This document shows positions 1 through 21,135 of a stretch of 24,744 bases of DNA, in pieces. The stretch is from contig JAZUCB010000121.1 in NCBI GenBank assembly GCA_045638985.1, forward strand, positions 1-24,744, written 5' to 3'. Source of the DNA: Clostridia bacterium (GTDB lineage Bacteria > Bacillota > Clostridia > Christensenellales > UBA1242). The notes under the pieces were generated by a model that saw nothing but the letters and a program-made list of their open reading frames with translations, ran no database searches and was not told the DNA's origin. The position numbers and the translations under genes are program-made. Numbering within the stretch: position 1 is the stretch's first letter; each line of letters starts with the position of its first letter.

Positions 1-514
1 TAACAGTGTTAGCAAATTGCAATCCATCACCCACACTAACATCATACACATTATCTTCAAAATTATATTTATTTGTTAGTGCTCTCTCATCTTCGGGTTC
101 TAACATGAATTTTTCTTTGCTTAGGCTACTCAAGTGATTTAACACGTATTCGTGAAATGATGTTCTTAGAAATGAACCTTTTGCTCTTTCTTGAACTTCA
201 TAACTTCTAGAATTTTTGGTGGTATAAAAAATCAATCTAGGAGTGTTTATTCCATACTCTATAAGTTGATTAATAATTTGTTTTCTATTTTCAAAAGTAT
301 TTGAAGAAAACAATTGAGATATAATTACCTTATCACTTTTAAATGGGTAAACAGTTTTATATGCGCCTTTACCCATTCTTTCAGTTTTTTTCTTAGTAAT
401 TTTATCTATGTGTAAAGCAAGTTCAAGATTATTAATGCTAGAAGTGCGTGGCACAAGATCGTTTTCTTCTTGCTTTGCTATTAAGTTTTGAATTATTTCA
501 TCAACGATGCTCAT
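1..514 (-). CDS. Kinase-like array paralog 0, partial and apparently truncated or fused; runs off the left edge
   Basis: Not in the ORF track; translated by hand from ATG 514 (RBS AAAGGAG), open to base 1. Reads MSIVDEIIQNLIAKQ...MGKGAYKTVYPF...GINTPRLIFY...YEVQERAKGSFLRT...EPEDERALTNKYNFE, closely matching 1777..2886, then diverges (DNVYDVSVGDGLQFANTV) at about base 55. Confidence 0.8.
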   Translation of the reverse strand, partial: MSIVDEIIQNLIAKQEENDLVPRTSSINNLELALHIDKITKKKTERMGKGAYKTVYPFKSDKVIISQLFSSNTFENRKQIINQLIEYGINTPRLIFYTTKNSRSYEVQERAKGSFLRTSFHEYVLNHLSSLSKEKFMLEPEDERALTNKYNFEDNVYDVSVGDGLQFANTV

Positions 515-566
515 GCATTCTCCTTTGTTTTATAATGAATTAATTTCTTTTTAATTTAAATTTTAA

Positions 567-1718
567 TTATTCTTTTTCTGAAACAACTTCAGTTTGAGGT
601 GTTGGTTGCTCCATTGCGTTTGTTAAATCCATTGCTTTAATAAAACTTTCGCCGTCTATTTCTTTATTGAAATCATAGGTGGCAGGCAAGTCAAATTGGC
701 AACGGATTGATTTTAATAAAGATTTATCATTTGATTTAATTGCAGAGTAAAGCAAATCTAAAGTTTGAGGGTTAGCACCATAAAAATTTGAAAATTTAAA
801 CCTTTCAGCATATTCCTTTGCAAACCTAAGTTTTGGATCGGGTGAAGTTTGCATAACGTTAAGGAATTGCGTGCATAATAGACCTGTGTAAACATATGCT
901 TCAAAATTTTCGTTAGGGTCTGGTTTGAAAAACCCTCCTTCATGTAAACTATCAACACAACAATGCATAAGGTAGGAATAGCTTGACATAATTCTAGCTT
1001 TATTAATGTCATTTATTTGTGAATTAAAAAAGTTATCTAAATCTAATATGTTGTTATTATCAAACTTGTCTAAATCTAAATCAATAAAGGTATATCCAAA
1101 GGCTGGGCTATAGAAGAAGTTGCCTCCGTTAACGTCTAAAGCGTAAGCAGAAGAAAGACAAGTGAAGTGTTTTAAGAACTTTTCAATATGAGGGATTCCT
1201 GTTAGAGTTCTGTTTTTAAGTATTTCAAAATTATATTTTTCGCATAACAAATTTTCTGAATCTTTAGTAAGATTAGGAACAAACATTTCTCCAGTTAAAC
1301 CATATAAATGATAAAGAACTTTCTCATAATCAAAGGTGTTTAAAAATGAACCCTTTGCTCTTTCTTGAACTTCATATGAAAGTTCTTTATTTCCTAATTT
1401 AAAAGCTTGGTCTTGCGTTAAATAAAAAATAAGTTTTGGAGTGTTAATTCCGTATTCGTTTAGTTTGTTAACTATTTCTTTTTTAACATTAAAAGGTAGT
1501 GTTTGGCGATAAGTGCCTTCCTCTAAAATAACTTTATCTTTTTTGTAAGGAAAAACATTTTTATATGCGCCTCCACCCGTTGGGTAAACGTCATAATCTG
1601 CAATTTTTTTAATTTGAGCTTTAATTTCTTTGGCGTTAAACCCACGAGAACATTGTTCTTGATCTATTTCCTTTTGCTTAGCTATTAAGTTTTGAATTAT
1701 TTCGTCAATGCTATTCAT
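567..1718 (-). CDS. Atypical protein-kinase-like protein, paralog 1 (subfamily A; possible pseudokinase)
   Basis: GGGAYKNVF, beta3 KVILEE (no Lys), YEVQERAKGS, DVNGGN, GYTFIDL, C-terminal FIKAMDLT. Confidence 0.75.
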   Translation of the reverse strand: MNSIDEIIQNLIAKQKEIDQEQCSRGFNAKEIKAQIKKIADYDVYPTGGGAYKNVFPYKKDKVILEEGTYRQTLPFNVKKEIVNKLNEYGINTPKLIFYLTQDQAFKLGNKELSYEVQERAKGSFLNTFDYEKVLYHLYGLTGEMFVPNLTKDSENLLCEKYNFEILKNRTLTGIPHIEKFLKHFTCLSSAYALDVNGGNFFYSPAFGYTFIDLDLDKFDNNNILDLDNFFNSQINDINKARIMSSYSYLMHCCVDSLHEGGFFKPDPNENFEAYVYTGLLCTQFLNVMQTSPDPKLRFAKEYAERFKFSNFYGANPQTLDLLYSAIKSNDKSLLKSIRCQFDLPATYDFNKEIDGESFIKAMDLTNAMEQPTPQTEVVSEKE

Positions 1719-1776
1719 GTTTTTTCCTTTGTTTGTTTTTTATGAATTGTTTTTTTTTAATTTTAAATTTAAATTA

Positions 1777-2886
1777 TTATTTTTCTGAAACATCATCAAT
1801 TTGAGGGGCTGGTTGCTCCATTGTATTTGTTAAATCCATTGCTTTAATGAACGATTCGCCGTCTAGTTCTTTATTGAAATCGTAAGATGCAGGCAATCCA
1901 AATTCTTTTCTTATATATTTAAATGTTGTTTCATCGTTTGTTTTTAAACCCGAGTATAATAGATCTAAAGTTTTTGGCGAGGCGCTAGTTATGGAATCAA
2001 AATCAAAATTTTCAGCAAATTCCTTTGCAAATTTTAAATTTGGGTCGGTTGAAGTTTGCATAACATTTAAAAATTGCTTTAGTAAAATTCCAGAATAAAC
2101 GTATTCGCCAAAATGCAAATTGTTGTGAAATAAATTATATCGATAACCATCATCTGAGGCAATGCATTCAAAAATAAAGTCGGCATAACCACTATTAATT
2201 TTGAATTCGCTTGAAGAATTGACTTTTGAATTTAAATAGGCTCTCATGTTTCTTATGTTTTTACTGAAATCTGAAACGTTTAAATCAATAAATGAGTAGC
2301 CAGTTCTTGGATCATAAAAGAAATTTCTAGGAAGAATATCAAGTGCTCCAACGGCTTTTAAGCAAGTGAAATCGCTCAAAAATTTTTCAATGTGTGGAAT
2401 GCCTGTTAAAGTTCTTCTTTTTATCATTTCAAAATTATACTTGTGTTTTAAAGAGTTTTCATCTTCGGGTTCTATTTTTATTTCTTTTTTACTTAATCCA
2501 CTTAAGTGATCTAAAATATAACGATAGTAATTTGTTCTTAAAAATGAACCTTTAGCTCTTTCTTGAACTTCATAATTGTGATTGTCTTTAACTGTGTAAA
2601 ATATTAATCTGGGCGTGTTTATTCCACATTCAATAAGTTGGTTAATAATTTGCTGGCGGTGTTCAAAATCATTTTTATGAAGCAATCCTGCTAAAATAAC
2701 TTTAGCTCCTTTATAAGGGTAAACATTTTTAAAAGCTCCATTGCCCATTTGGTTGGCTTTTTTATTTTCAATTTGTTTTATATGGAAATATAGTTCAGTT
2801 TCGTTTAAACTATCTTTTCTAGCAAGAGCATCGTTGGCATCTTGCTTGGCTATTAAGTTTTGAATTATCTCATCAACGGTGCTCAT
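1777..2886 (-). CDS. Atypical protein-kinase-like protein, paralog 2 (subfamily A; possible pseudokinase)
   Basis: GNGAFKNVY, KVILAG (no Lys), YEVQERAKGS, DILPRN, GYSFIDL, FIKAMDLT; RBS AAAGGAG. Confidence 0.75.
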   Translation of the reverse strand: MSTVDEIIQNLIAKQDANDALARKDSLNETELYFHIKQIENKKANQMGNGAFKNVYPYKGAKVILAGLLHKNDFEHRQQIINQLIECGINTPRLIFYTVKDNHNYEVQERAKGSFLRTNYYRYILDHLSGLSKKEIKIEPEDENSLKHKYNFEMIKRRTLTGIPHIEKFLSDFTCLKAVGALDILPRNFFYDPRTGYSFIDLNVSDFSKNIRNMRAYLNSKVNSSSEFKINSGYADFIFECIASDDGYRYNLFHNNLHFGEYVYSGILLKQFLNVMQTSTDPNLKFAKEFAENFDFDSITSASPKTLDLLYSGLKTNDETTFKYIRKEFGLPASYDFNKELDGESFIKAMDLTNTMEQPAPQIDDVSEK

Positions 2887-2952
2887 GTTCTCTCCTTTGT
2901 TTAAATTTATTTTTATTTATATTTTAGTGCTTATTTTTTTTAAGTTTCCTAA

Positions 2953-4266
2953 TTAATTTATTTCAGCAATTTCATCAGTTTTAGCAGTTGGTTGCTCCAT
3001 GGCATATGTTAAATCCATGGCTTTAATGAAAGCATCGCTATCTAGTGTTTTATTCAAGTCGTAATCTTCAGGTAAATAAAATTGATTTTTAACTTCTTGC
3101 AAATAATTTGAGTTGTTTGTTTTAAATGCTGAATATAATTGGTCTAAAAATTCGGGTGGGGCAGAGAAGAAATTTTTTTGATTGTAAAGGTTATTTGCAT
3201 AAAACTTTGCATTATCAAGAAGTGGGCTAGAAGTTGTTTTCATAACGTTTAGAATTTGTTTGGTTAAAACTCCTAAGTAAACATATTCGGTGAAGTATTC
3301 ACGGTTATAAAAACATTCAGAACCCATATATTTTTTGTTTAGTTCCCAACTTCCATATAAATTTGAAAAGAAAAAATCATAATCAGGAAAACTTTTCAAG
3401 TTTTCTTCAAATATACATTTTAATTTTTTTTCATTATAAGATTCAGAGAAACCTCTATAGCCTAAGTCAATAAAAGAATAACCATATTTTTCACTAAAAT
3501 GAATGTTTTCTCCGTGATAATCTATCAAATGATTATTATTAAGAACGGTAAAATCTTCTAAAAATTTTTCAATGTGGGGAATGTGAGTTAAAGCACGGTG
3601 TTTTAGCATGGTTGCGTTATATGTTTTATCAAGATTGCGAGTGAACCCAAGTTGGCTCGGGTGGCAGTTTTTAAGGGTTGATAAAAAGGAAATCATATTT
3701 TCAGGTTTTCCAAAGGCTAATGGAAGCCCTGTTGCTAACTTTTGAATTTCATATGTGATATTAAAGTCACCATTATGCAAAACATCATCTCTAAGAATGT
3801 TTCCAACCAATTCGGGAGTGTTTATATTGTAATTTTTCCTTAAAAAATCAGAAGTTGTTTGTTTGTCTGAAAAACTTATATATTGATTGGGAACTTGTTT
3901 TAATAAGATATATGTTAAAAATCTATAACCCTTTTTATGAACGCCTGACCCCATTTCAGATGAAAGGCCATGTTCAATTTTTTGAATAGATTCAACCAAC
4001 AAAGGATTTTCTGAGGTGAAATAAGAAGGTTCATAATTTTCTAGCATAATTTTTTCATCTGTGTTATTTTGCAATTTTATTAATTCTTCAACTAACTCTA
4101 AATCATAATCATTTAAAGAATATATTAAAGAATCAGATTTTTTTTCAGATTCTTTGGTTAATGGTGGTTGAGTGCAAGAAACAGAATGAGCAGAATTGGT
4201 TGATTCCGTCATTTGAGGTTGATGCTTATTGAAAAACTGTTGAAAAATTCTATTCTTTATTTTCAT
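2953..4266 (-). CDS. Atypical protein-kinase-like protein, paralog 3 (subfamily A, N-terminal extension)
   Basis: GSGVHKKGY, YILLK, YEIQKLATG, DYHGEN, GYSFIDL, FIKAMDLT. The start codon is uncertain because of the roughly 55-aa extension. Confidence 0.8.
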   Translation of the reverse strand: MKIKNRIFQQFFNKHQPQMTESTNSAHSVSCTQPPLTKESEKKSDSLIYSLNDYDLELVEELIKLQNNTDEKIMLENYEPSYFTSENPLLVESIQKIEHGLSSEMGSGVHKKGYRFLTYILLKQVPNQYISFSDKQTTSDFLRKNYNINTPELVGNILRDDVLHNGDFNITYEIQKLATGLPLAFGKPENMISFLSTLKNCHPSQLGFTRNLDKTYNATMLKHRALTHIPHIEKFLEDFTVLNNNHLIDYHGENIHFSEKYGYSFIDLGYRGFSESYNEKKLKCIFEENLKSFPDYDFFFSNLYGSWELNKKYMGSECFYNREYFTEYVYLGVLTKQILNVMKTTSSPLLDNAKFYANNLYNQKNFFSAPPEFLDQLYSAFKTNNSNYLQEVKNQFYLPEDYDLNKTLDSDAFIKAMDLTYAMEQPTAKTDEIAEIN

Positions 4267-4270
4267 TGGT

Positions 4271-5458
4271 TTATATCATTTCTCCTATGCTGGTTGAATT
4301 GTTTTGCATGTCCATTTCGTTAGTTGAATCCATTGCTTTAATAAAACTTTCGCTGTCAAAATCGGTTTGGAAATCATATGATTTTGGAAGCTTAAAATGA
4401 GAGCGAATTTTTTTAAGGCTTTTTTCATCGTTTTGCGTTATTCCAACGTATAGTAAGTTTAAGTTTTTTGAACTTGCTCCAAAATAATCTTTTTCCATGT
4501 TTTTATAATCAAAATTATTAGCAAACTCATTAGCGTCTTTTAAAATCGGATCTGTTGAAGTTTGCATAACGTTTAATAGTTGTTTCATTAGAATTCCAGA
4601 GAACATAAAGTGTTCAAAGTGTTCTTTTCTGCCATCTAAAAAATCATGATAAGAATATCGCTTTGAATGCAAAACAGTTCCATCGGCGCGTTCAAAAAGA
4701 TTGTTAAAGTTTACTTTTCTATTTGCAAGGCAGGTGTTTAAATATTTTTCAAAGTTTGCCAACCCACAGTTGTTTATGCAATCGTTAATATCTAAATCAA
4801 TAAATGAATATCCCATAGATGGGTTATAAAAAACGTTTCCACCATGATAATCCAAAGCATTAATAGAATCTAATATGGCGTAATCTTTTAAAAATTTCTC
4901 AGTGTGGGGAATGCCAGTTAAAACTCTGCGTTTCATCATATCAAGATTATATTTGTGAACTAATTCCCAGAATAATGGGTGAGAATTGCAGTCTAAAACC
5001 TTTTGGTTTTCAAGTGAGTTTAAATAATAAGTAAACTGAGTGGTTGAGTTAAAACCAATTGGTGCTCCAATAGCAGATTGCTGAACTTCATATATTAGGT
5101 CGTCGAATCCGTTTTTGATTATGTCATTTTGGTAGCAAGCGTAAAGCAATGCAGGAGTTGAGACTCCAGCTTCTTTTAAATTTTGAGCAAAAGTTTTTTT
5201 GGCTTTTAGAGAAATAAAACCCGGTTCGCTTCCGTAAGCCAAAATAACATAGTTTAAAAATCTGTAACCAGTTTTTTCCACGCCAAACCCAATTGAAATG
5301 CTTGATTCAGCATTAATATTTTTAATAGCAGAAACAACTTCAGATTCATCAAAAGAAGAATATAGCGATGAAACATCTTTTTGTTCTTTTATTAAGTTTT
5401 GGTCTACTTGATTTTGCAATTCAAATATTCGATTAACAAAGTCGTTTACATTATTCAT
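4271..5458 (-). CDS. Atypical protein-kinase-like protein, paralog 4 (subfamily A)
   Basis: GFGVEKTGY, YVILAY (no Lys), YEVQQSAIG, DYHGGN, GYSFIDL, FIKAMDST; RBS AAAGGAGG. Confidence 0.8.
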   Translation of the reverse strand: MNNVNDFVNRIFELQNQVDQNLIKEQKDVSSLYSSFDESEVVSAIKNINAESSISIGFGVEKTGYRFLNYVILAYGSEPGFISLKAKKTFAQNLKEAGVSTPALLYACYQNDIIKNGFDDLIYEVQQSAIGAPIGFNSTTQFTYYLNSLENQKVLDCNSHPLFWELVHKYNLDMMKRRVLTGIPHTEKFLKDYAILDSINALDYHGGNVFYNPSMGYSFIDLDINDCINNCGLANFEKYLNTCLANRKVNFNNLFERADGTVLHSKRYSYHDFLDGRKEHFEHFMFSGILMKQLLNVMQTSTDPILKDANEFANNFDYKNMEKDYFGASSKNLNLLYVGITQNDEKSLKKIRSHFKLPKSYDFQTDFDSESFIKAMDSTNEMDMQNNSTSIGEMI

Positions 5459-5501
5459 AACTAATCCTCCTTTTTTATATTTTTAGGTAAAGTTTGAAGT
5501 T

Positions 5502-6689
5502 TTACATTGTTTCGTTTGTTTGCATTTGTTCATTTGGATTATTCATTTCTCTAGTTATATCCATTGCTTTAATAAAACTTTCGCAGTCGAACATCGTTTG
5601 AAAATTAAAGTTATTAGGAATATCGAATTGATTGCGAATGCAATCAAGGCATCTTGAATCGTTTTCTTTTATTCCTTTATATAAAACGTTTAATGTGCTT
5701 GGGTTTGCGCCAAAGAATTTTTGGTCAATACTGTTTGGGTGTATTCCGCCTAAAAATTCTTTTGCGCTATCTAAAATTGGGCTGGGTGAATTATTAATTG
5801 CATTTATGCATTGTTGCATAACAATTCCTGAGAAAATAAAGTTTTCAAAGTATCGGCTTTTATCTGAATTAAAAGAGTAAGCATTATAAGTTCTGCTAAA
5901 AATAAGTGAACCATCTAAGATGTCAAATAAAATATTGTAATTAGGTGGGTTTGAAATTAGTGCATTATTAACAAAGCCAACTAAATCTTTTTGTTTGTTA
6001 AATTTTAAAAGCGTGTCGTCAAAAACTAAATCTATGAATGTGTAGCCGCTGTTTTCGTTATATAAAATATTCCCACCATGAAAATCCAATGCATTCATAG
6101 ATGCAAGTATGGCATAGTTTTTAACAAAATTTTCAGCATGTTTTGCACCAGTTAATGCACGTTTTTTAAGCATTTCTAAATTATATTTGGCAACTAGTTT
6201 TTTATTGTCAGTTTCAGAATTTCCATATACTTTTTTATTTTCTAATGCGTTTGCATAGTCAATAACTTTATAAGACATGCTAAATCCAATGGGCGAGCCT
6301 TTTGCAAATTGTTGAACTTCATATAAATCGTTCACGTAACCATCATCAAATAGTTTATCTCTTGAAGAATGGAAGATAATTGGAGGAGTTTGAACACCAA
6401 TTGACCTCAACTTTTGAGTGATTTCTTTTTTGGTAGAAAGTGAAACGGTGTAATCAATCTTTTCTTTCAGAATAATATAATTTAAAAATTTATATCCAAC
6501 TTTGTCAACGCCTCTGCCAATTATGGTTGTTTCTCCTTGTTCAATGTTTTTAATTGCTTTAACGAGTTGAGGCATATGAAGAAGAGAATAAAGAAGAGAG
6601 TCAGATGCAGTTTCATCAATTAAACTTTCATCTAACTTTTTTTGAAGTTCAAATATTCTTTTAATAAATTCTTCATTAGTGTTTTTCAT
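5502..6689 (-). CDS. Atypical protein-kinase-like protein, paralog 5 (subfamily A)
   Basis: GRGVDKVGY, YIILK, YEVQQFAKGS, DFHGGN, GYTFIDL, FIKAMDIT; RBS AAAGGAGG. Confidence 0.8.
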   Translation of the reverse strand: MKNTNEEFIKRIFELQKKLDESLIDETASDSLLYSLLHMPQLVKAIKNIEQGETTIIGRGVDKVGYKFLNYIILKEKIDYTVSLSTKKEITQKLRSIGVQTPPIIFHSSRDKLFDDGYVNDLYEVQQFAKGSPIGFSMSYKVIDYANALENKKVYGNSETDNKKLVAKYNLEMLKKRALTGAKHAENFVKNYAILASMNALDFHGGNILYNENSGYTFIDLVFDDTLLKFNKQKDLVGFVNNALISNPPNYNILFDILDGSLIFSRTYNAYSFNSDKSRYFENFIFSGIVMQQCINAINNSPSPILDSAKEFLGGIHPNSIDQKFFGANPSTLNVLYKGIKENDSRCLDCIRNQFDIPNNFNFQTMFDCESFIKAMDITREMNNPNEQMQTNETM

Positions 6690-6728: not shown

Positions 6729-7913
6729 TTATATCATTTCGTTTGTTTCTGATTGTGTATTTGGATTATTCATTTCCCTAGTTAAATCCATTGCTTGAAT
6801 AAAGCTTTCGCAATCAAAGTGGGTTTGAAAATTAAAGGTTGTTGGAATATTGAATTGGTTGCGAATTGCATCTAAAGATTCAGCATCGCTATTTTTTATT
6901 CCGTTATATAATTGATTAAGTGTTTTATAATTTGCTCCAAAATAGGTTTGGTCAATGTTTTCAATGTCTAAATTTTCAACAAATTCCTTTGCACAATCTA
7001 AAACCGGATCTTGCGAATTTGATATTGCGTTTAAATATTGTTGAATTAATATTCCTGAAAAGATGAAGTTTTCAAAATATTTAGTTTTGTCTTTTTTAAA
7101 TCTATTTGGAAAAAACATTTGATCGTGCATAATTGTTCCATTAATTCTATCGAAAAACACATGAAAGTTTGGCGGGTTGTTTTCTAATGCATTGTTGATA
7201 AAAGAGGAAACATGTGGGGTTGTTAAAATATTAACAATTCCACCTAACTCTAAATCAATAAATGAATATCCAGCTTTATCATGAAAGAAAACATTTCCTC
7301 CATGAAAATCTAATACTTTTAAAGAGTTTAGAATTGAATAGTTGTTAATATATTTTTCAATGTGAGGAATTCCTTTTAATGTGCGTTTTTTAAGCATTGC
7401 AAGGTTATATGCCATAACCAAGTCGGTGTTGTTTTCAGTTTCGCTATGAGCGTTGTTAGATTCTAACCCGTTGGCATATTCTAAAACTTTGTAAGATTTA
7501 GAAAAACCAATTGGTGAACCAATTGCTGATTGTTGAACTTCATATAAATCATTAACATGACCATTGTTAAAAACAATATCTTGATTTGTGTGAAAAACGA
7601 TTGGTGGGGTGGAAACACCCTGATCGCTTAAAACTTTAGTTATTGCTTTTTTAACATTTAATGGCAAGTTATATTTATTGGGTTTTTGTTTTAAAATAAC
7701 GTAGTTTAAAAATCTATACCCAACCTTTTCAACGCCTTTTCCAGACTCAAGAACGTTTCCTTTTTCAATATCTTTAATAACATCAATTATTTGAGAAGCG
7801 TGAAATAGCGAATAAATGAGAGAGTCAACTGGAGACTGGGTTATTAAGTTTTGGTCTAATTTGTTTTGCAGTTCAAATATTCTTTGAATAAATTCATCAT
7901 TAGCATTTTCCAT
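6729..7913 (-). CDS. Atypical protein-kinase-like protein, paralog 6 (subfamily A)
   Basis: GKGVEKVGY, YVILK, YEVQQSAIGS, DFHGGN, GYSFIDL, FIQAMDLT; RBS AAGGAGG. Confidence 0.8.
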   Translation of the reverse strand: MENANDEFIQRIFELQNKLDQNLITQSPVDSLIYSLFHASQIIDVIKDIEKGNVLESGKGVEKVGYRFLNYVILKQKPNKYNLPLNVKKAITKVLSDQGVSTPPIVFHTNQDIVFNNGHVNDLYEVQQSAIGSPIGFSKSYKVLEYANGLESNNAHSETENNTDLVMAYNLAMLKKRTLKGIPHIEKYINNYSILNSLKVLDFHGGNVFFHDKAGYSFIDLELGGIVNILTTPHVSSFINNALENNPPNFHVFFDRINGTIMHDQMFFPNRFKKDKTKYFENFIFSGILIQQYLNAISNSQDPVLDCAKEFVENLDIENIDQTYFGANYKTLNQLYNGIKNSDAESLDAIRNQFNIPTTFNFQTHFDCESFIQAMDLTREMNNPNTQSETNEMI

Positions 7914-7981: not shown

Positions 7982-8170
7982 CTAAACCAATCCAAATTCT
8001 AATTCGCCATTGTTTTCTTTAACTTCCATATGCTCTCTTTCTGAGTGATTAATTGGGGCAGGGTTAGGGTTTGCAAAATCAAACTCGTGAGTTGCTTGCA
8101 TGGTTTCTAAAAAGTTAGGAATATCAATGCAAGCAAAATCAAAATCTTCTGGTAGGTTATATTCTTCCTT
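7982..8170 (-). repeat. Near-identical 3' gene ends shared by paralogs 7, 8 and 9 (other copies at about 9365..9545 and 10671..10860)
   Basis: Visual alignment; for example GGGTTAGGGTTTGCAAAATCAAACTCGTG and TTTCTAAAAAGTTAGGAA recur in all three copies. Confidence 0.85.
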
Positions 8171-11980: not shown

Positions 11981-13303
11981 TTAAACCATTTCATATTCTA
12001 AATTTCCATCAACGTCGCGAGCTTTAATATACTCTCTAGATGGTGTTTCAGTTGGGGTTGGGTTTGGGTTAGAAAAATCAAACTCGCGAGTTGCTTTCAT
12101 TGTTTCTAAGAAGAATGGAATATCGATGCAAGAGAAATCAAAATCTTCTGGCAAGTTATATTCTTCTTTAATTTCGTCAAGGGAAGTAGAGTTGTTTTCA
12201 AGTAAAGCATTTTCAAGCTTTAATAAATTATTAGGTGATATTAAAATTGCATTGTTTAAAACGGTATTGCTCTTATCGTTTAATTGCGATTCAAGTTTAA
12301 TAGCGCAATCTTTAGCGTGTGGGAAATTTGGGTTATAGCAATCATTTTCTGGAGTGTTGGTTTTCATTGATTCTAGAAGTTGATGTGTTATTATTCCGTT
12401 ATAAACATATTGAGCAAAGCCTCTTTTAAGCGTTGGTTTAGCAATGTGAGAAGGAGTGGAAAGGCCCAAAGCTGAAATCATATAATTCATGAAATCTCGT
12501 TCAATTGTTTCAGAAGAGTAATTTGAATAGTTTTCTAAATTTTCTTTAATCTTTGAAATGGCTTCTGCTTGTTTGAATGTTTCATCATCAAATAAATTGT
12601 TGGTTTGGTCTATATCGAAAAACGTGTAGCCTTTTTGAGAACTATAAAAAACGTTTTCTGTGTGTAAATCTTTAAAACCTAAAATCTTTAATGTGCTGAA
12701 ATCAAACATATAATTTTTAATAAAAGGCATTCCTGTTTTTGCTCTGTGTTTTGTCATGGCAAGATTAAATTGATCTCTAACTTTGCTTTTGTCTAAATCT
12801 TTAAAATATTCTATGTTAATATCATGATTAGCTGAAGTTATGTGTTCAATTAATGAGTCTGCTCTAAGAGATTTAACAAAAGAGCCTTTTGCTTCTTCTT
12901 GAATTTCAAATGAATAATATGGGTGGCTTTTATTAGGGTAAACGCTTGCTTCTGTTGTGAACAAAAGAGGCATTGCAATATTAACTCCAAACTTTTTTAG
13001 CGCTAATGCAATGAAAAAAGCTTGGCCTGGTTTTGCAACTTTTGTGTCGCTTTTTAATAAAATTTTATTTGAATTAATTAAAAATCCTTTTTTATGAACG
13101 CCTTCACCACAAATACATGGTTTTTTGCCAGGATTTTCGCTTTCCATAAGTTCTTTAATGTGGTGAGTGTATTCTTCATTTTGAGAAGCAATTTCATCAT
13201 CTGAAGGAGCGTGGTCTAAACCAAGCAAAGAAAAATCTGATGGTTCGAAGCCACTTTCTTTGTTTTGGGTTTTAAGTTTTAAATATTCTAATATGTTATT
13301 CAT
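11981..13303 (-). CDS. Atypical protein-kinase-like protein, paralog 10 (subfamily B)
   Basis: CGEGVHKKGF, KILLK, FEIQEEAKGS, DLHTEN, GYTFFDI, ends LEYEMV; N-terminus nearly identical to that of 7982..9322. Confidence 0.8.
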   Translation of the reverse strand: MNNILEYLKLKTQNKESGFEPSDFSLLGLDHAPSDDEIASQNEEYTHHIKELMESENPGKKPCICGEGVHKKGFLINSNKILLKSDTKVAKPGQAFFIALALKKFGVNIAMPLLFTTEASVYPNKSHPYYSFEIQEEAKGSFVKSLRADSLIEHITSANHDINIEYFKDLDKSKVRDQFNLAMTKHRAKTGMPFIKNYMFDFSTLKILGFKDLHTENVFYSSQKGYTFFDIDQTNNLFDDETFKQAEAISKIKENLENYSNYSSETIERDFMNYMISALGLSTPSHIAKPTLKRGFAQYVYNGIITHQLLESMKTNTPENDCYNPNFPHAKDCAIKLESQLNDKSNTVLNNAILISPNNLLKLENALLENNSTSLDEIKEEYNLPEDFDFSCIDIPFFLETMKATREFDFSNPNPTPTETPSREYIKARDVDGNLEYEMV

Positions 13304-13360: not shown

Positions 13361-14704
13361 TTAAACCAACCCAAACTCTAATTCGCCATTAACTTCTTTT
13401 AATTCAACGTGTTCTCTGGTTGGGGTTTCAATAGGGGTAGGATTTGGGTTTGCAAAAACAAACTCGTGAGTTGCTTTCATTGTTTCTAAAAAGTATGGAA
13501 CATCAATGCAGTTAAAATCAAAATCATCTGGCAGGTTAAGTTTTTTTGCAATTAAATGCAAAGCAACTTGGTTATTGGTAAGCAAAGCGTTTTCTAAACT
13601 CATCAATGTGTTTGAGCCCATTGCAAAAGTTCCATCATCGCAAATGTCTGATTTGTTAAGTTCTTTTTCTTTCTTTTCTGCAAACTTTTGAACCAATGGT
13701 TTTCTTAAATTATGAGAGCCCAAATCAGTTGCGTGTTTCATTGTTTCAATTGCTTGATGGGCAATAATTCCGTTATAAACATATAAAGGGAAGTTTTCAG
13801 CAGTTAAAACATCATCGGGCTTATATTTATTTGAAACAAGTGTGAATATCATTTGGGTTGCTGTTTTCTCTGGAAAATTAATGCTAGCCCCGTCGCGATA
13901 AATTCCTAATCCGCAAGCAAAGAAATCTCTATAATAATATTCTTCCATTGGTTTAGATGTTTGGCTTATTGCTTTGTTAATCTCATCAACAACGTTTCCA
14001 CTTGGATTGATGTTGTTATCGGTATATTCCAAATCAAAGAAAGTGTAACCCTTTTTAGAACTAAAGAATATGTTTTCATAAAAAACATCTCCATGGTTTA
14101 ATGCTTTTAATGTTCTGAAATCAGAGAAGAATTTGTTCATATGAGGCAAGCCAGTTTTTGCACGGTGCTTTGCCATTTGAGTGTTGTATTGAATTAGTAA
14201 TTCTTTTGCTGTTAATTCTTGCACAGTGCTTGATTTAAATGTTTCAATGTTAAATGCTGCTAAATGCTCTAAAAGAGAGTTTGATCTAAAAGCACTAACA
14301 AACGAACCTTTTGCTTCTTCTTGAATTTGATATGAGTAATCGCCGCAATCAATATTTTTAAGTTCGTTTTCATGAATTTGAAATAAAGGCATTGCAATAT
14401 TTATTCCATATTTTTTAAGAGCAAGTGCTCTATAAAAATTTTCAGATGCCGGGCGAACAACTTTATCTGATTTTAGTAAGATTTTATTGTTGATTCGGTA
14501 TGCACTTTTATCTCTTCCTTCTCCGCATGGTGCTTGGGTGGAGTTTTCAACTTGGTTAACCATTTGAACGTATTCTTCATTTTGCATTGTGATATTGCAA
14601 TTGGTTGGTTGAAACTCATCGCTAAGCATAGAAAAATCAGCAGTTGAAAAACCACCTCTATTTTCTTTTATTGCATTCATTAAAACTTCAAAAGTATTAT
14701 CCAT
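13361..14704 (-). CDS. Atypical protein-kinase-like protein, paralog 11 (subfamily B; catalytic-loop His replaced)
   Basis: CGEGRDKSAY, KILLK, YQIQEEAKGS, HGDVFYEN, GYTFFDL, ends GELEFGLV; RBS GAGGTGG. Confidence 0.8.
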   Translation of the reverse strand: MDNTFEVLMNAIKENRGGFSTADFSMLSDEFQPTNCNITMQNEEYVQMVNQVENSTQAPCGEGRDKSAYRINNKILLKSDKVVRPASENFYRALALKKYGINIAMPLFQIHENELKNIDCGDYSYQIQEEAKGSFVSAFRSNSLLEHLAAFNIETFKSSTVQELTAKELLIQYNTQMAKHRAKTGLPHMNKFFSDFRTLKALNHGDVFYENIFFSSKKGYTFFDLEYTDNNINPSGNVVDEINKAISQTSKPMEEYYYRDFFACGLGIYRDGASINFPEKTATQMIFTLVSNKYKPDDVLTAENFPLYVYNGIIAHQAIETMKHATDLGSHNLRKPLVQKFAEKKEKELNKSDICDDGTFAMGSNTLMSLENALLTNNQVALHLIAKKLNLPDDFDFNCIDVPYFLETMKATHEFVFANPNPTPIETPTREHVELKEVNGELEFGLV

Positions 14705-14748
14705 GTTCCACCTCTAGATAATTTCTTTATTCACATAATATTTATTAT

Positions 14749-14777
14749 ATTATATAATAGCAATAGGGAGATGTCAA
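14749..14777 (-). promoter_or_regulatory. Consensus sigma70/sigmaA promoter, probably driving the left 12-gene kinase operon
   Basis: TTGACA (14777-14772), 17-nt spacer, TATAAT (14754-14749), followed by ATAATAAATATTATGTG. Confidence 0.85.
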
Positions 14778-14903
14778 TAGTGGATTTTTTTATTTAACAT
14801 ATAAAAACCTTTATTTTTGGCTACTTTTTAATAAAAAAAGGTTGGTTTAAAAGTTTTACTAAAATTTAAAAGGTAAATATTCTATTTTTTTATTTTTAAC
14901 CTC

Positions 14904-14954: not shown

Positions 14955-15029
14955 GGTCCTATGGTCAAGCGGTTAAGACGTCACCCTCTCACGGTGAAAT
15001 CAGGGGTTCGAGTCCCCTTAGGACTACCA
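14955..15029 (+). tRNA. tRNA-Glu (anticodon CUC)
   Basis: Acceptor stem GGTCCTA/TAGGACT; D arm TGGTCAAGCGGTTAAGAC; anticodon stem TCACC/GGTGA with loop CT-CTC-AC; T arm AGGGGTTCGAGTCCCCT; encoded 3' ACCA; 75 nt. Confidence 0.95.
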
Positions 15030-15038
15030 AACAAAAAT

Positions 15039-15271: not shown

Positions 15272-15985
15272 ATGATGCTAACTAAAAAGAAAATAGTTAT
15301 TGTGTTAAGTTTAATATTAAGTGTTTGTTTTTTAATAAGTGTAAGCGTTTGGTGTTTTAAAATTATTCCAGAAAAAAATGAAAAACTTAAAATTCAACAA
15401 ATGATCAAACAATATCGAGAAGAAAAACTTAAAACATATGCTGAGGAAAATGCAACGTTTGAGGATTATGAAATTGACGTGGCGTTTTTAGGGGATAGTT
15501 TAACCGATGGATATGGCGTTAAAGAATATTATTCTGAGTTTAAAGTTGCTAATAGAGGAATCAGTGGCGACACAACTTTTGATTTAGAAAAACGATTAGA
15601 AGTTTCTTTGTTTGATTTAAAACCAAAAGTTGCAGTTATGCTAATTGGGGCGAATAACTTTAGAACTATGTTTCAAAACTATGAGAGAATTGTTCAGAAA
15701 ATAACCTCAACTTTGCCAAACACAAAATTGGTGTTGTTATCATTAACTGCAATGGGTGGCAAATGGGGAAAAAACAACGAAATTGCGTGCTTTAACAATG
15801 TTAAAATTAAGTTAGTCGCAGAAAAATACAACTGTGAATTTATAGATTTATTCACTCCATTATTAAACCCAGAAACAAATGAAATTTTTGAAAATTTCAC
15901 TTCTGATGGTGGGCATTTAACCAGCGCTGGTTATGAGGTTTTAACTGCTCAAATCAAGCCGGTTTTAAAGAGTTTAATTGTGTAA
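15272..15985 (+). CDS. SGNH/GDSL-family hydrolase with an N-terminal membrane anchor or signal
   Basis: Block I VAFLGDSLTDG, block II NRGISG, block III IGANN, block V DGGHLTSAGY; hydrophobic N-terminus KKKIVIVLSLILSVCFLISV; RBS AGGAG. Confidence 0.9.
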   Translation: MMLTKKKIVIVLSLILSVCFLISVSVWCFKIIPEKNEKLKIQQMIKQYREEKLKTYAEENATFEDYEIDVAFLGDSLTDGYGVKEYYSEFKVANRGISGDTTFDLEKRLEVSLFDLKPKVAVMLIGANNFRTMFQNYERIVQKITSTLPNTKLVLLSLTAMGGKWGKNNEIACFNNVKIKLVAEKYNCEFIDLFTPLLNPETNEIFENFTSDGGHLTSAGYEVLTAQIKPVLKSLIV

Positions 15986-16048
15986 TTTTTATGAGTTTAA
16001 GTTAAAAACAAATGAAAAAAATAAGAATAATTCAAGATTAATAAAAGA

Positions 16049-16080
16049 AAAAAATCAACTTATAATTTAGTTGATTTTTT
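16049..16080. terminator. Bidirectional intrinsic terminator between the convergent SGNH gene and kinase paralog 12
   Basis: AAAAAATCAACT-TATAATTT-AGTTGATTTTTT, a perfect 12-bp inverted repeat with A and T tracts. Confidence 0.75.
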
Positions 16081-16111
16081 GTTTTGAGCCAGCTTTTTAT
16101 TGTTGGTTTTT

Positions 16112-17350
16112 TTAAACCAATTCATAATCATAATCTCCGTTTTGGGAAATGTTAAGACTTGCGTGGTCTGATGTGTTTTGAGAAGTGTTAGCTTTAGGGG
16201 TTGGGTCTTTATAATCAAATGTGTGAGATAAATGCATTGTTTCTAAGAAGTTTGGAACATCAATGCATGAAAAATCAAAGTCTTTGCCAAGTCCATGTTG
16301 CATGGCGATGCTTTTTAAAACTCCATCATCATTTGAAATTAGTGCTTTTTCAAGAGTTGCAAGTGTTTTAGGATTCATTGCAAAAACCTTTCCAACAAGC
16401 AAGTTTTTGTTTTCATAAAAATCAGCAATAGTTTTTCTGGCAAAAGCCCTTGCGTTTGGAAAAAGTGGATTATAATTTGGGCTTTCTGGAACGTTTGAGT
16501 TCAACATTTTTAAATATTGAAAAAGCAAAACGCCGTTATAAACATATTGAGAAAAATTGTTTTCGTTAGGGGTTTCTGTAAAATCACTTTTGTTTAGACC
16601 AAAAGATGTTGTTAAAAAGGTTGAATAATCATGATCTTCAAAAAAATTGGAGCGTCTTGCTAAACGTTGTTTAACAACTTCTGCAAAGTTTTCGTTTTCA
16701 TTAAAATCGAAATCAAAATGTAAATCAAAAAATTTATAACCATCTTTAGAGCTATAATACACATTTTCTGAGTGTTTGTCTTGAGTGCCTAATTCTGTTA
16801 AAATAACGTAGTCCATAAAGAAATTTTTTAAATGAGGCAATCCTGTTTTTGCGCGATGTTTTGCCATTTGAAGGTTATATGCGTTATTTAATTTTTCTTT
16901 ATCAATCTTTTTAAAATCTAAATTAGGACTGAATGCTGAAAGATATTTAACAAGACTATCTTCATTAATAATTCTAACGTGTGAGCCTTTTGCTTCTTCT
17001 TGAACTTGATATTGAACAGGGTAATCTTCTGATTGAAAGAACCCTTTAAATCTACGAATGTTTTTTTCAGAAGTAAAGAAAACTGGGCAAGCAATATTAA
17101 CCCCCATTTTTTTTAATGCGTTTGCTTTTTTAATAATAGATGGTGGGTCAACTTTATAACTTTTAGTTTTTAGAAGTATATAACCTGGTTTTAAATGATA
17201 TGCTTTTTTATAAAGACCTTCTCCGCATAGTGTTGGGTGTGATTTTTCAAGTTTGCGAATTTCGTTAATAAAATCTATGCTAGAAATATCTTCAGCATTT
17301 TCATGAGTATTTATTAAATTGTTTTTAATTTGCTCTAATATTTTACTCAT
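16112..17350 (-). CDS. Atypical protein-kinase-like protein, paralog 12 (subfamily B)
   Basis: CGEGLYKKAY, YILLK, YQVQEEAKGS, DKHSEN, GYKFFDL, ends DYELV. Start moved from 17371 to ATG 17350, which has GGAG upstream. Confidence 0.8.
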   Translation of the reverse strand: MSKILEQIKNNLINTHENAEDISSIDFINEIRKLEKSHPTLCGEGLYKKAYHLKPGYILLKTKSYKVDPPSIIKKANALKKMGVNIACPVFFTSEKNIRRFKGFFQSEDYPVQYQVQEEAKGSHVRIINEDSLVKYLSAFSPNLDFKKIDKEKLNNAYNLQMAKHRAKTGLPHLKNFFMDYVILTELGTQDKHSENVYYSSKDGYKFFDLHFDFDFNENENFAEVVKQRLARRSNFFEDHDYSTFLTTSFGLNKSDFTETPNENNFSQYVYNGVLLFQYLKMLNSNVPESPNYNPLFPNARAFARKTIADFYENKNLLVGKVFAMNPKTLATLEKALISNDDGVLKSIAMQHGLGKDFDFSCIDVPNFLETMHLSHTFDYKDPTPKANTSQNTSDHASLNISQNGDYDYELV

Positions 17351-17405
17351 TTTTTTCTCCAATAGTTTCAAATTTGAACCTTAAGCCACATATTATTTAT
17401 TATAT

Positions 17406-17434
17406 ATTATACAATATTATTATGTTTTTGTCAA
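17406..17434 (-). promoter_or_regulatory. Consensus promoter of paralog 12
   Basis: TTGACA (17434-17429), 17 nt, TATAAT (17411-17406). Confidence 0.85.
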
Positions 17435-17451
17435 TTTGAAGGGGTTTTGGT

Positions 17452-18591
17452 TTAAACAAACTCAAACTCAGTTCTGTGAATATTTCTATCAACTTTAATA
17501 TGGTCGATGCTAGAGGTTGAGGTTTGAGTGTTTGTTGGATTTGAATAATCAAACTCGTGAGTTAATTTCATTGTTTCTAAAAAGTTCGGAATATCGATGC
17601 AAGAAAAATCAAAGTTTTTGCCTAACTTATATTCATCACGAACTAAATTAAGAGCATCTTCGTTGTTGTTTAATAAGCCTTGCTCTAGTGTAAATAACAT
17701 CATTGGTGGCATTGAAAAATAATTTTCTCTTAAATGTTTGCTATTTTCTAATGTGTATGCAAAATTTCGCGTGTTAGGAAAGTGTGGGTTGTAGCAAGGG
17801 TTTTCGGGAATATTTGCTCTAACTGTTTCGCATAATTGATGTGCAATAACTCCATTATAAACAAATTGGGTGAAGTTTTCGGAAGAGTGTTTCGAAACAT
17901 CAATAGGGCAAATTAACCCATAGCAATCTTGGAGGAATCTATTTAAAGTTGTTTGAGAATCAATAGTTTCGCCACCATCGCTTACGTTTATTATTTGAGA
18001 AGCAATATCTTTATCTGGATTAATTTGCATAAAAGGTGATAAATCAAAAAATGTGTAGCCATTGGTTGATGAATAATAAACATTTTCAGAGTGCATGTCA
18101 CCATTATGAAAAGCGCATAAAGTTAGATAATCGTTTAAGAAATTATTTAAGTGAGGTAGGTGAGTTTTTGCACGATGTTTTGTCATTTCAACATTATAAT
18201 TTTTTGCCAATTTTTTTTGGTTAATAAGTTGTTTTCTTAAAGATGGGTTAAATGCAATAATGTGGGAATATAAACTCTCTTCTCGTGAAACATTAACAAA
18301 AGAACCTTTTGCCTCTTCTTGAACCTCATAAAAGATTAATCTATTGCCTTCTTTTTCAACCTTATCTTGAGATGTGAAAAATTTTGGCAGTGCAATATTC
18401 ACGCCATAATTTTTTAAAGCAATATATCTTTTTATATTTTCAGCAGGTTCAACTGGTGCTTTTCTAGATTTTAGAATAACGTGACCATCTAGGGTGTATC
18501 CAGTTTTTGAGTTTCCTTCTCCACATTTTATTGCTTTTTTTTCTGCTTTTTTTATTAAGTTGATATAAAATTCTTCAAACGCTTCGCTCAT
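17452..18591 (-). CDS. Atypical protein-kinase-like protein, paralog 13 (subfamily B)
   Basis: CGEGNSKTGY, HVILK, YEVQEEAKGS, NGDMHSEN, GYTFFDL, ends EFEFV; RBS AAGGTGG. Confidence 0.8.
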   Translation of the reverse strand: MSEAFEEFYINLIKKAEKKAIKCGEGNSKTGYTLDGHVILKSRKAPVEPAENIKRYIALKNYGVNIALPKFFTSQDKVEKEGNRLIFYEVQEEAKGSFVNVSREESLYSHIIAFNPSLRKQLINQKKLAKNYNVEMTKHRAKTHLPHLNNFLNDYLTLCAFHNGDMHSENVYYSSTNGYTFFDLSPFMQINPDKDIASQIINVSDGGETIDSQTTLNRFLQDCYGLICPIDVSKHSSENFTQFVYNGVIAHQLCETVRANIPENPCYNPHFPNTRNFAYTLENSKHLRENYFSMPPMMLFTLEQGLLNNNEDALNLVRDEYKLGKNFDFSCIDIPNFLETMKLTHEFDYSNPTNTQTSTSSIDHIKVDRNIHRTEFEFV

Positions 18592-18643
18592 TTTTTTCCA
18601 CCTTTATTTTTGAGTTAGCAATTACCCGCATAGTATTTATTAT

Positions 18644-18672
18644 ATTATATAATATAATATTAAATTTGTCAA
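18644..18672 (-). promoter_or_regulatory. Consensus promoter of paralog 13
   Basis: TTGACA (18672-18667), 17 nt, TATAAT (18649-18644). Confidence 0.85.
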
Positions 18673-18886
18673 ATTTGCCAAATTTTAAGATTGCTTCTAA
18701 ACCATTTCAAAATCGAAGTTGTTCTCATCGATAGTTGAAACTTTAATATGATCAACAGTTGATGAAGTTGGTGCTTGATTGTTTGTTGGGTTTGCAAAAT
18801 CAAACTCATGAGTTAATCTCATTGTTTCTAAGAAGTTTGGAATATCAATGCAAGAAAAATCAAACTTCTCGCCTAAATCGTATTTT
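18665..18886 (-). repeat. Direct repeat (second copy at 19925..20146, offset 1260 nt) covering the 3' end of one paralog and the -35 box of the next
   Basis: TTTGTCAAATTTGCCAAATTTTAAGATT(G/A)CTTCTAAACCATTTCAAAATCGAAG... occurs at both positions with scattered mismatches. Confidence 0.85.
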
Positions 18887-19857: not shown

Positions 19858-19903
19858 TTTTTCCACCTTTATTTTTAAGTTAGCAATAGTTCACATAGTA
19901 TTT

Positions 19904-19932
19904 ATTATATTTTATAATGTTGAATTTGTCAA
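19904..19932 (-). promoter_or_regulatory. Consensus promoter of paralog 14
   Basis: TTGACA (19932-19927), 17 nt, TATAAT (19909-19904). Confidence 0.85.
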
Positions 19933-19956
19933 ATTTGCCAAATTTTAAGATTACTT

Positions 19957-21135
19957 CTAAACCATTTCAAAATCGAAGGTATTCTCATCGATAGCCGAAA
20001 CTTTAATATGATCAACATTCGATGAAGTTGGTGCTTGATTATTTGTTGGATTTCCAAAATCAAACTCGTGAGTTATTTTCATAGTTTGCAAAAAATTAGG
20101 GATATCAATGCAAGAAAAATCAAAGTCTTTGCCTAGTTCGTATTTTGTTCTTATTTGGTTAAGAAGAACTGAATTGTTATTTAATAAACCTTCCTCTAGC
20201 ATTAAAATATCGTTAGGATGCATAGCGAAAATGTTGTTTTCAAAGAATCCATCATGAGTTTTAATATAATGACTTATGTTTTTACCATTTTTCAATATTG
20301 GGTTGATATCATTATCACACGACTTATTTATTGTTTCTAAAAGTTGGTGTGTTAAAATTCCGTTATAAACAAATAGACTGAAGTGGTTATTAACTAGGTC
20401 TTTTGATGTAAGGGGAAAGCAATTCATACCCAACCCAAAACAATCTTCCATAAATAGTTCAACTTTTGTTGCGTCAAATGATAGATTAAGCAAACTGCTT
20501 GCACTTTTATGTTGTTGTGATTCTAATTGATCTTGAAATTGAGAGGCTATATCAAATGCTGGGTCAACATTTATTAGTGCAGTAATATCGAAAAAAGTAT
20601 AACCATTGGTTGAGGAATAGTTAACATTTTCTGAGTGCATATCTCCATTTCCAAAAGTGCGTAATAAAAAGTAATCGCTAACAAACTTTTTTAAATGGGG
20701 TAACCCAGTTTTTGCGCGATGCTTTGCCATTTCAAGGTTATATTGTTGTTTAAGTTTTACTTTATCAGGTTCTTCTTCGTTTAAATTTGGGTTGAATGCA
20801 ACTAGGTGATAATATAAATTTTTAGTGTTTGAAACGTTAACAAAAGAGCCTTTTGCTTCTTCTTGAACCTCATAAAAAGTTTCAGGATCGCCGAATTTTT
20901 CAACTTTATCTTGCGAAGTGAAAAACTTAGGCAACGCAATGTTCACGCCATAATTTTTTAAAGCAGTTAGTTTTTTAATATATTCAGCAGGGTGGAAGAG
21001 GCTTTTGGTTGATTTTAAAATAACATGGTTGTTGCAATAAAAACCAGTTTTATAAACTCCAACCCCACACTTAGTTGAATCTTGTTCAGCTTTTTTTATT
21101 AAGTTTAAATAAAATTCCTTAAACTCTTCGCTCAT
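19957..21135 (-). CDS. Atypical protein-kinase-like protein, paralog 15 (subfamily B)
   Basis: CGVGVYKTGF, HVILK, YEVQEEAKGS, NGDMHSEN, GYTFFDI, ends DFEMV; RBS AAGGTGG. Confidence 0.8.
   Translation of the reverse strand: MSEEFKEFYLNLIKKAEQDSTKCGVGVYKTGFYCNNHVILKSTKSLFHPAEYIKKLTALKNYGVNIALPKFFTSQDKVEKFGDPETFYEVQEEAKGSFVNVSNTKNLYYHLVAFNPNLNEEEPDKVKLKQQYNLEMAKHRAKTGLPHLKKFVSDYFLLRTFGNGDMHSENVNYSSTNGYTFFDITALINVDPAFDIASQFQDQLESQQHKSASSLLNLSFDATKVELFMEDCFGLGMNCFPLTSKDLVNNHFSLFVYNGILTHQLLETINKSCDNDINPILKNGKNISHYIKTHDGFFENNIFAMHPNDILMLEEGLLNNNSVLLNQIRTKYELGKDFDFSCIDIPNFLQTMKITHEFDFGNPTNNQAPTSSNVDHIKVSAIDENTFDFEMV

Follow-up and report, generated by a model that had tools for sequence, protein, structure and literature searches.

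A tandem array of divergent protein-kinase-like genes in a small-genome bacterium of the Christensenellales

The array

The stretch of DNA analysed here (24,744 nt in full length, called the window in the following) is contig C121 (JAZUCB010000121.1, positions 1 to 24,744) of the Clostridia bacterium assembly GCA_045638985.1 (Christensenellales, UBA1242), which comprises 1.15 Mb in 266 contigs at 30% GC and is 75% complete. Between bases 2 and 21135 its minus strand carries 16 open reading frames (ORFs) of a family of protein-kinase-like (PKL) proteins, here named K0 to K15 (Table 1). Fifteen are complete (369-447 aa), whereas K0 (bases 2-514) is truncated at the left contig edge. An earlier note, made from the sequence alone, had described 15 complete paralogs and a partial one on a single strand, which the ORF listing bears out.

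The array continues on a second contig, C228, giving 17 genes in total that amount to 2.0% of the assembled bases (about 22.9 kb). The first gene on C228 is the C-terminal half of a K1/K2-like copy (C228a, 58-61% identical to K1 and K2); about 30 residues lie between the last homologous residue of K0 and C228a, which fits as the missing half of K0. A further full copy follows (C228b, 377 aa), and then unrelated genes. In K0 the N-terminal 152 aa are homologous to the other copies, while bases 1-56 are unlike any paralog. Contigs from four animal-gut metagenome runs over bases 1-3000 were short fragments, 85-95% alike, none of which covers bases 1-100. The wider-family profile gave 18 matches in the genome, corresponding to the 17 genes, and every copy matches the family profile at E 1e-120 to 1e-156, well outside what chance would give; a first pattern-based scan of genome contigs matched no relatives. 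With 17 of the 794 ORFs of at least 150 aa, this is the largest paralog family of the genome.

Paralogs within the window are 20-71% identical, and neighbours are most alike, as the earlier note had observed: in the identity matrix K0/K2 reach 61%, K4/K5/K6 42-54%, K8/K9 71%, K7/K10 64% and K13/K14/K15 51-55%. Two deep clades, A (K0-K6) and B (K7-K15), are 20-32% identical to one another. A maximum-likelihood tree supports clade A (K1-K6) at 99/99 and clade B (K7-K15), including metagenomic orthologs of K11 and K12, at 100/100. C228b forms a third lineage, and the short forms of congeners fall with a homolog from a conjugative element into a separate deep clade. About three ancestral genes, duplicated in tandem again and again, gave rise to the array and its two clades. 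Horizontal acquisition as a compositional island was ruled out, the GC content of the array being 30.2% as compared with 29.9% for the genome.

Kinase fold and nearest relatives

We modelled one copy per clade with AlphaFold2: K13 for clade B, with a predicted local distance difference test (pLDDT) score of 92.7, and for clade A K2, the copy with the most altered catalytic loop (pLDDT 94.0); the predicted template modelling score was 0.92. In Foldseek searches of the PDB, all of the best 50 listed matches were kinase-fold proteins for both models. They include the NAK kinases BIKE/AAK1/GAK, Fus3/ERK, Staphylococcus aureus PknB/Stk1, APH(2'')-Ia and APH(2'')-IVa, as well as YtaA, YihE, RIO1, PRPK and LicA, with YtaA (2q83) as the fourth-best match for K13. 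A search of BFVD returned nearly exclusively kinases, mostly viral and phage ones. The structural comparison that the earlier note had proposed thus placed the models on a kinase fold, with no match to a well-characterised family.

Profile comparison led to the same fold. Using APH and Pkinase alignments built from genomes of the same order, hhalign matched the family profile to APH with 94% probability (E 8e-8, 174 columns) and, in the same register, to Pkinase with 67% (E 5e-5); a reversed APH control reached 0.2%. In the APH alignment the glycine loop, V-x-L-K, hinge, D-x-H-x-x-N and F-I-D-L of the array proteins fall on the APH glycine loop, beta3, hinge, HGDxHxxN and VID. By sequence and predicted structure, then, the array proteins are distant members of the protein-kinase-like superfamily, as the earlier note had suggested.

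Individual sequences gave little to name the family by. The Pfam scan yielded no match better than E 0.0065, and the sole kinase-clan match was EcKL at E 0.013 (K11). PF01636 (APH) was not matched by the eight copies scanned at E <=1; across 77 family members (K13 and 76 remote homologs) it was matched by two, at E 0.011 or worse. The copies scanned had no match to the Hanks-type model PF00069, and none of the 76 remote homologs has a Pfam domain. The weak single-sequence matches recur only for kinase-clan families (EcKL, ABC1, APH, LepB_N and PI3_PI4), and at E <=10 no Pfam families other than ABC1 and APH, both of kinase fold, have matches in two or more members. NCBIfam gave no significant match, nor did PDB sequences searched with phmmer and hmmsearch. 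PADLOC (best E 0.029) and PHROGs (best E 0.0031) each hit one copy, with no match to a system component. The description of the family as unrecognised therefore holds for all five of these resources. Searched exhaustively with the profile, 1.84 billion representative proteins yielded only 94 matches at E <=1e-3. No hydrophobic segment that could serve as a signal peptide or membrane segment occurs in any copy.

The best profile match supports the APH/choline-kinase type of eukaryotic-like kinases as the nearest known group, as a distant kinship rather than as membership of PF01636. It does not support the likeness to PI3K, HipA and effector kinases put forward before. With the APH group (PF01636; APH(2'')-Ia, 5byl; APH(2'')-IVa; LicA, 4r77) the array shares the bilobal kinase fold, in most copies the D-x-H-x-x-N loop, and an (I/F)-D-(L/I) metal-binding motif that frequently has an acidic residue behind it (IDxE). 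Downstream of the DFG-like Asp both are helical and variable, and both lack an APE motif and a classical activation loop. Unlike APH, the array copies stay below the PF01636 threshold, lack the His of HGD except in K11, and have an invariant Lys in the glycine loop; the long forms add a conserved C-terminal module of about 70 residues and, in clade B, a tail. Template modelling (TM) scores to APH structures are only 0.2-0.3. Hanks kinases (PF00069; PknB/Stk1, 4eqm; NAK, 5ikw and 4o38) are the top Foldseek matches and share fold and motif order with the array, which differs from them in having no HRD, APE, conserved alpha-C Glu or invariant beta3 Lys and in falling below the Pfam threshold.

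Active site

In the alignment of the 15 complete copies the following residues are invariant (K1 numbering): G48, G50 and K53 of GxGxxK, L65, Q118, A121 and G123 of YEVQxxAxG, N163, K168, R170, D195, N200, G208, Y209 and D213, together with several C-terminal columns. The catalytic Asp, the catalytic-loop Asn and the metal-binding Asp are present in 16 of 16 copies covering them. From the Asn to the metal-binding Asp the distance is exactly 13 in every copy, over gap-free columns, so that the spacing counted in the earlier note for some copies applies throughout. Among the 76 remote homologs, the catalytic Asp and the Asn are each retained in 75 and the DFG-like Asp in all 76; G26, G96 and G178 (K13 numbering) are nearly invariant in this set.

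The ordered motifs listed in the earlier note are found in the complete copies. Two of their residues are not invariant, namely the beta3 Lys (ILLK/VILK) and the His of DxHxxN. The former is absent from K0, K1, K2, K4 and C228b, i.e. from 5 of the 17 copies covering the position, and from about one third of the remote homologs. The latter is missing in K1, K2 and K11, the full D-x-H-x-x-N being present in 12 of 16 copies. His-Gly before the catalytic Asp, as in the HGD of APH, occurs in K11 only. The array copies have no conserved alpha-C Glu, no HRD, no APE motif and no classical activation loop.

The beta3 strand is present as described before, yet the conserved lysine is the one in the glycine loop. 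This residue (K29 of K13) is invariant in all array copies with an N-lobe, is K or R in 52 of the 76 remote homologs, and aligns to the third glycine of GxGxxG in the alignment to Pkinase. In WNK1 the catalytic Lys233 sits in beta2 (PMC4718504), and some groups of eukaryotic-like kinases are active despite having neither the beta3 Lys nor the alpha-C Glu (PMC4702295). The functional ATP-site lysine of the array proteins would probably be the glycine-loop one, with the beta3 Lys being dispensable, a resemblance in mechanism to WNK: in both, the ATP-site Lys lies in the glycine loop/beta2, here at the position of the third glycine. Unlike WNK, there is no sequence kinship beyond the superfamily, and most array copies keep a Lys next to beta3. 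In an ESMFold2 co-fold of K13 with ATP and 2 Mg, a model in which an S-adenosylmethionine (SAM) control scored equally, ATP touches residues 23-29, 38, 40, 91-94, 167, 169-170 and 182-183, i.e. the glycine loop, beta3, the hinge, the catalytic loop and D183; K29, V38 and L40 are contacted and K41 is not. The label "pseudokinase" was considered for K1 and K2 and dropped, as both retain the Asp, Asn and Asp and the K2 model has a pLDDT of 94.

Selection, gene conversion and expression signals

Ratios of non-synonymous to synonymous substitution rates (dN/dS) were computed against L113, a contig from a near strain. Whole array genes gave 0.19-0.27 as compared with 0.02-0.07 for flanking genes. 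By region, the values were 0.11 for the N-lobe and catalytic core, 0.44 from the DFG-like Asp to the long central helix, and 0.27 for the C-terminal part. Entropy between paralogs is highest at residues 196-240 of K13, in the post-DFG segment, and this stretch of about 50 residues varies more than any other part, whether paralogs or strains are compared. In kinase-fold enzymes the post-DFG segment is on the substrate-binding side.

The gene ends behave differently. In the core, K7 is about 45-60% identical to K8 and K9, with third codon positions near saturation, whereas over the last 60-90 codons identity rises to 92-96% and that of third positions to 86-96%. The ends of the genes have been homogenised by gene conversion, especially the C-terminal module of about 70 residues of the long forms. 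The profile of the wider family ends at about residue 308 of K13; therefore, the last ~70 residues have been added in the long forms only. When this module alone was searched against the ESM Atlas, scores were 0.50 or less, with no look-alike. In clade B the tail ends in aromatic-x-aromatic-x-hydrophobic-Val; docking of K13 split into body and C-terminal tail returned a score of 0 and was uninformative.

Perfect TTGACA-N17-TATAAT promoters lie upstream of five genes, K15, K14, K13, K12 and K11. Between K11 and K0 the intergenic distances are 4-68 bp with no such promoter, and a Shine-Dalgarno site precedes every gene. This layout suggests that K15, K14, K13 and K12 are single-gene units and that K11 to K0, and on into C228, form one long operon; expression of the array would be vegetative. 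Downstream of each of the five promoters lies an almost invariant sequence of ~18 bases (ATAATAAATAnTATGTGG) (minus-strand regions 14705-14820, 17351-17475, 18592-18715, 19867-19975 and 21136-21260). It could be the transcription start region or a shared operator of the five units.

Distribution and strains

The wider-family profile matched 9 of 40 genomes from other species of the genus, with 1-3 copies each that are often in tandem, and left 31 without a match. There was no match in 20 genomes from other genera of the family, and in the rest of the order 2 of 380 genomes had one copy each. With 0-3 copies in other species of the genus and a single copy in 2 of 400 other genomes of the order, the array is a lineage-specific tandem expansion, as the earlier note had put it. 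Two sister species, G016 and G006, have a flanking gene at 82-84% identity. They carry two copies, sharing about 26% identity with the array, beside a core gene encoding a 408-aa protein. This gene is present in 40 of 41 genomes of the genus and in the window at 23490-24716 on the plus strand, and serves as a syntenic landmark for the kinase-like locus in the sister species.

Short forms (256-300 aa) make up mini-arrays of two to three genes at G020:C2:207265-209688, G008:C4:101568-103196 and G047:C3:27027-28801; the G047 copies hold in-frame stop codons. One remote short-form homolog, P0072 (L115/L116 8001-8975; contigs JGI 3300021310 and ENA ERZ27247006), is located inside a Gram-positive conjugative-element gene set, with PrgI, a VirB4/TraG-like ATPase, sortase, CHAP hydrolase and methyltransferase as neighbours.

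Orthologs of the array genes at 52-87% identity occur in independent metagenome assemblies, and metagenome runs with parts of the locus come from animal gut, including goat. The near-strain contig L113 has the same flanking genes, at 93-98% amino-acid identity, and orthologs of K15, K13 and K12 at 79-87%, while K14 is absent. As to the host lineage, the TypA/BipA-like GTPase of the same genome is 87-88% identical to that of uncultured Clostridia/"Christensenella sp." assemblies from human (Hadza) gut and 72-78% identical to that of assemblies from rabbit, buffalo and other guts. Genomes of the genus measure ~1.0-1.4 Mb, and those of sister genera 0.8-1.2 Mb at 98-100% completeness. Spo0A was found in 21 of 21 genomes of the genus searched, and therefore the lineage probably sporulates. 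Hanks-type kinases (PF00069, E <=1e-20) were found neither in this genome nor in one 100%-complete sister-genus genome, whereas, among 39 genomes from the order's other families, 24 encode such a kinase.

Function and alternative explanations

With a little more confidence than doubt, we regard the array as coding for 17 soluble, cytoplasmic, catalytically competent ATP-dependent phosphotransferases of a previously unnamed PKL family, which act as a battery of specificities. According to our proposal, the catalytic half, which is under strong purifying selection, would carry out one chemistry common to all copies; the C-terminal part, which gene conversion keeps alike, would be a shared interaction module; and the post-DFG segment, different in each copy, would direct the enzymes to different phosphorylation targets. 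The array as a whole would then be directed at a varied set of targets. Active phosphotransferases with differing specificities are what the conserved motifs and the variable segment suggest. The presence of 17 copies in a reduced genome, at about 2% of the bases, implies a strong selective value.

What these enzymes would phosphorylate is a finer question. Small molecules, e.g. antibiotic-like or other xenobiotic compounds, are slightly favoured because of the APH profile match, the D-x-H-x-x-N loop and the lack of an APE motif and activation loop. An eight-copy family of GNAT acetyltransferases is encoded in the same genome, and insects have arrays of EcKL kinases; both speak, the latter by analogy, for small molecules as well. 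GNAT proteins are a classic class of small-molecule-modifying enzymes, and the EcKL arrays are detoxification kinases. Foreign or self proteins are nearly as likely substrates.

Several observations weigh against this picture of a battery of active kinases or against its choice of substrates. The Foldseek matches have E of 1e-4 to 1e-3 and TM scores of 0.2-0.3, and the family is far from every solved kinase, so that arguments on substrate from the nearest family are weak. Hanks kinases and APHs appear at similar ranks in the two PDB searches, and APH-fold enzymes themselves include protein kinases (YihE/SrkA, the CotS/YtaA group and HipA-like proteins). The ATP co-fold has no discriminating power, since the SAM control reached the same 0.85. 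No recurrent partner gene was seen in the genomic context of the remote homologs, and a search for RNA-seq runs holding the locus listed none. Finally, dN/dS is below 1 in every region measured.

A rival explanation, which we consider a tentative possibility with a real claim to attention, is that the proteins are protein kinases engaged in biological conflict, either sensing or modifying phage and other foreign proteins in defence or being delivered as effectors or toxins; the conserved C-terminal module and the clade-B tail would then be a shared docking or export signal. Non-synonymous change that is faster than in the flanks fits this idea, as do the absence of K14 from a strain with flanks 93-98% identical, the mosaic copies produced by gene conversion, the patchy and rare occurrence of the family, the remote homolog inside a Gram-positive conjugative element, the Hanks kinases among the best structural matches, and the tiny genomes of the lineage (0.8-1.4 Mb), which suggest dependence on other cells. 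However, PADLOC and PHROG gave no match, and the proteins lack a signal peptide as well as LXG and other known secretion domains; a WXG100 gene was not found in the 75%-complete genome. Gaps of 4-105 bp leave no room for ORFs of a partner, immunity protein or antitoxin, and the docking of the tail was uninformative. The arms race that the earlier note had suspected behind the expansion gains from the elevated non-synonymous change, the difference in copy number between strains and the gene conversion, while the analysis turned up neither a secretion signal nor a defence-system match or partner gene; because dN/dS stays below 1, it is plausible but unproven.

A bolder and, in our estimation, unlikely proposal is that the locus is a recombining, hypervariable repertoire of intracellular kinases, i.e. 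a "specificity library" driven by gene conversion and comparable to contingency or immune-receptor loci, set against changing foreign molecules. Each copy would join a conserved catalytic engine and a shared C-terminal docking module to its own target-recognition segment, by which a reduced-genome gut bacterium might recognise and neutralise phage proteins or the toxins of competitors.

It is improbable that the kinase fold serves another chemistry here (SelO-like AMPylation or SidJ-like glutamylation, for example), or that many of the proteins are pseudokinase binders or scaffolds. The atypical ATP site speaks for it, with the dispensable beta3 Lys, the lack of a conserved alpha-C Glu and, mostly, of a His before the catalytic Asp; K1, K2 and K11 have also lost the His of DxHxxN, and SAM equalled ATP in the co-fold score. 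On the other hand, conservation of the Asp, Asn and metal-binding Asp in every copy and in 75-76 of the 76 remote homologs is typical of active phosphotransferases, dN/dS is 0.11 in the catalytic half, and there are precedents in the active kinase groups without the beta3 Lys and alpha-C Glu (PMC4702295) and in the beta2 Lys of WNK (PMC4718504).

It is very unlikely that the copies are CotS/YtaA-type spore-coat kinases whose number grew because of rapid coat-protein evolution. The rank of YtaA among the PDB matches for K13 and the presence of Spo0A throughout the genus in a lineage that probably sporulates are in line with it, but the family falls short of the APH/CotS Pfam model, 31 of 40 other species of the genus do without it, and all five promoters have a perfect vegetative sigma-70-type consensus. 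Promoters of the mother-cell factors sigma-E and sigma-K look different. We set this explanation aside because of the vegetative-type promoters. That the genes are decaying, functionless duplicates or an assembly artefact is largely refuted: the fragmented, incomplete assembly (266 contigs, 75% complete) and K0, broken at the contig edge with 56 bases unlike any paralog, would allow for it, but 15 of 15 complete frames are open with a Shine-Dalgarno site and evolve at a dN/dS of 0.19-0.27, orthologs at 52-87% identity exist in independent assemblies, with the same flanks in L113, the GC content equals the genome mean, and the flanking 408-aa core gene is syntenic with the two-copy locus of the sister species.

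The kinase fold is among the best-studied enzyme folds, and this family of putative phosphotransferases is nameless and model-less, with no solved relative above a TM score of ~0.3. The locus represents a natural experiment in how the specificity of an enzyme diversifies. Its invariant glycine-loop lysine and dispensable beta3 lysine offer a testable bacterial parallel to WNK; if true, the WNK-like position of the glycine-loop lysine would be new for a bacterial kinase family. Should the substrates be antibiotics or xenobiotics, the family would count as an unrecognised part of the gut resistome; should they be proteins, it would represent a new conflict system.

Other features of the locus

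Table 1. Features of the window, with coordinates on the forward strand
Feature	Position	Strand	Basis
K0, partial paralog at contig edge, clade A	2..514	-	ORF, profile match; C228a fits as C-terminal half
K1, 383 aa, clade A; catalytic loop DVNGGN, no beta3 Lys	567..1718	-	ORF, alignment
K2, 369 aa, clade A; catalytic loop DILPRN, no beta3 Lys	1777..2886	-	ORF; AlphaFold2 pLDDT 94.0
K3, 437 aa as called, clade A; start codon uncertain	2953..4266	-	ORF
K4, 395 aa, clade A	4271..5458	-	ORF, alignment
K5, 395 aa, clade A	5502..6689	-	ORF, alignment
K6, 394 aa, clade A	6729..7913	-	ORF, alignment
K7, 446 aa, clade B; 3' end homogenised with K8, K9	7982..9322	-	ORF, pairwise comparison
K8, 420 aa, clade B	9365..10627	-	ORF
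K9, 421 aa, clade B	10671..11936	-	ORF
K10, 440 aa, clade B	11981..13303	-	ORF, identity matrix
K11, 447 aa, clade B; heads closely packed run K11 to K0	13361..14704	-	ORF, gap lengths
Perfect TTGACA-N17-TATAAT promoter upstream of K11	14749..14777	-	Sequence motif
tRNA-Glu(CTC), in gap splitting the array between K11 and K12	14955..15029	+	tRNA call
GDSL-family lipase/acylhydrolase gene, same K11/K12 gap; not a family member	15272..15985	+	Domain match
K12, 412 aa from ATG at 17350 with Shine-Dalgarno, clade B; ORF list extends to TTG 17371	16112..17350	-	ORF
Perfect sigma-70-type promoter of K12	17406..17434	-	Sequence motif
K13, 379 aa, clade B; glycine loop 24-29, D165, N170, D183	17452..18591	-	AlphaFold2 pLDDT 92.7
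Perfect sigma-70-type promoter of K13	18644..18672	-	Sequence motif
K14, 386 aa from ATG at 19857 with Shine-Dalgarno, clade B; absent from L113	18697..19857	-	ORF
Perfect sigma-70-type promoter of K14	19904..19932	-	Sequence motif
K15, 392 aa, clade B, first array gene	19957..21135	-	ORF
Perfect sigma-70-type promoter of K15	21190..21218	-	Sequence motif
216-aa protein, P-loop-like N-terminus, no Pfam match; flanks array head	21583..22233	+	ORF
HD-domain phosphohydrolase, flanks array head	22368..22943	+	Domain match
408-aa protein, no Pfam match, genus core gene	23490..24716	+	ORF

The gene of the 216-aa protein (21583-22233) is replaced in L113 by a DUF1653 gene. An HD-domain neighbour is found in the window and by the remote homolog L179, and is missing from the sister species G016; we did not build on it.

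The genome contains other paralog families, mostly in tandem: one with 10 members of ~424 aa without Pfam match, the GNAT family of eight mentioned above (four tandem copies on C122), a run of seven ~300-aa ORFs and another set of five ~225-aa ORFs, both likewise without Pfam match. These families are located at G000 C169:1620-5637 and C89; C122:6726-9601; C132:1772-7360; C257:3116-5322 and C40.

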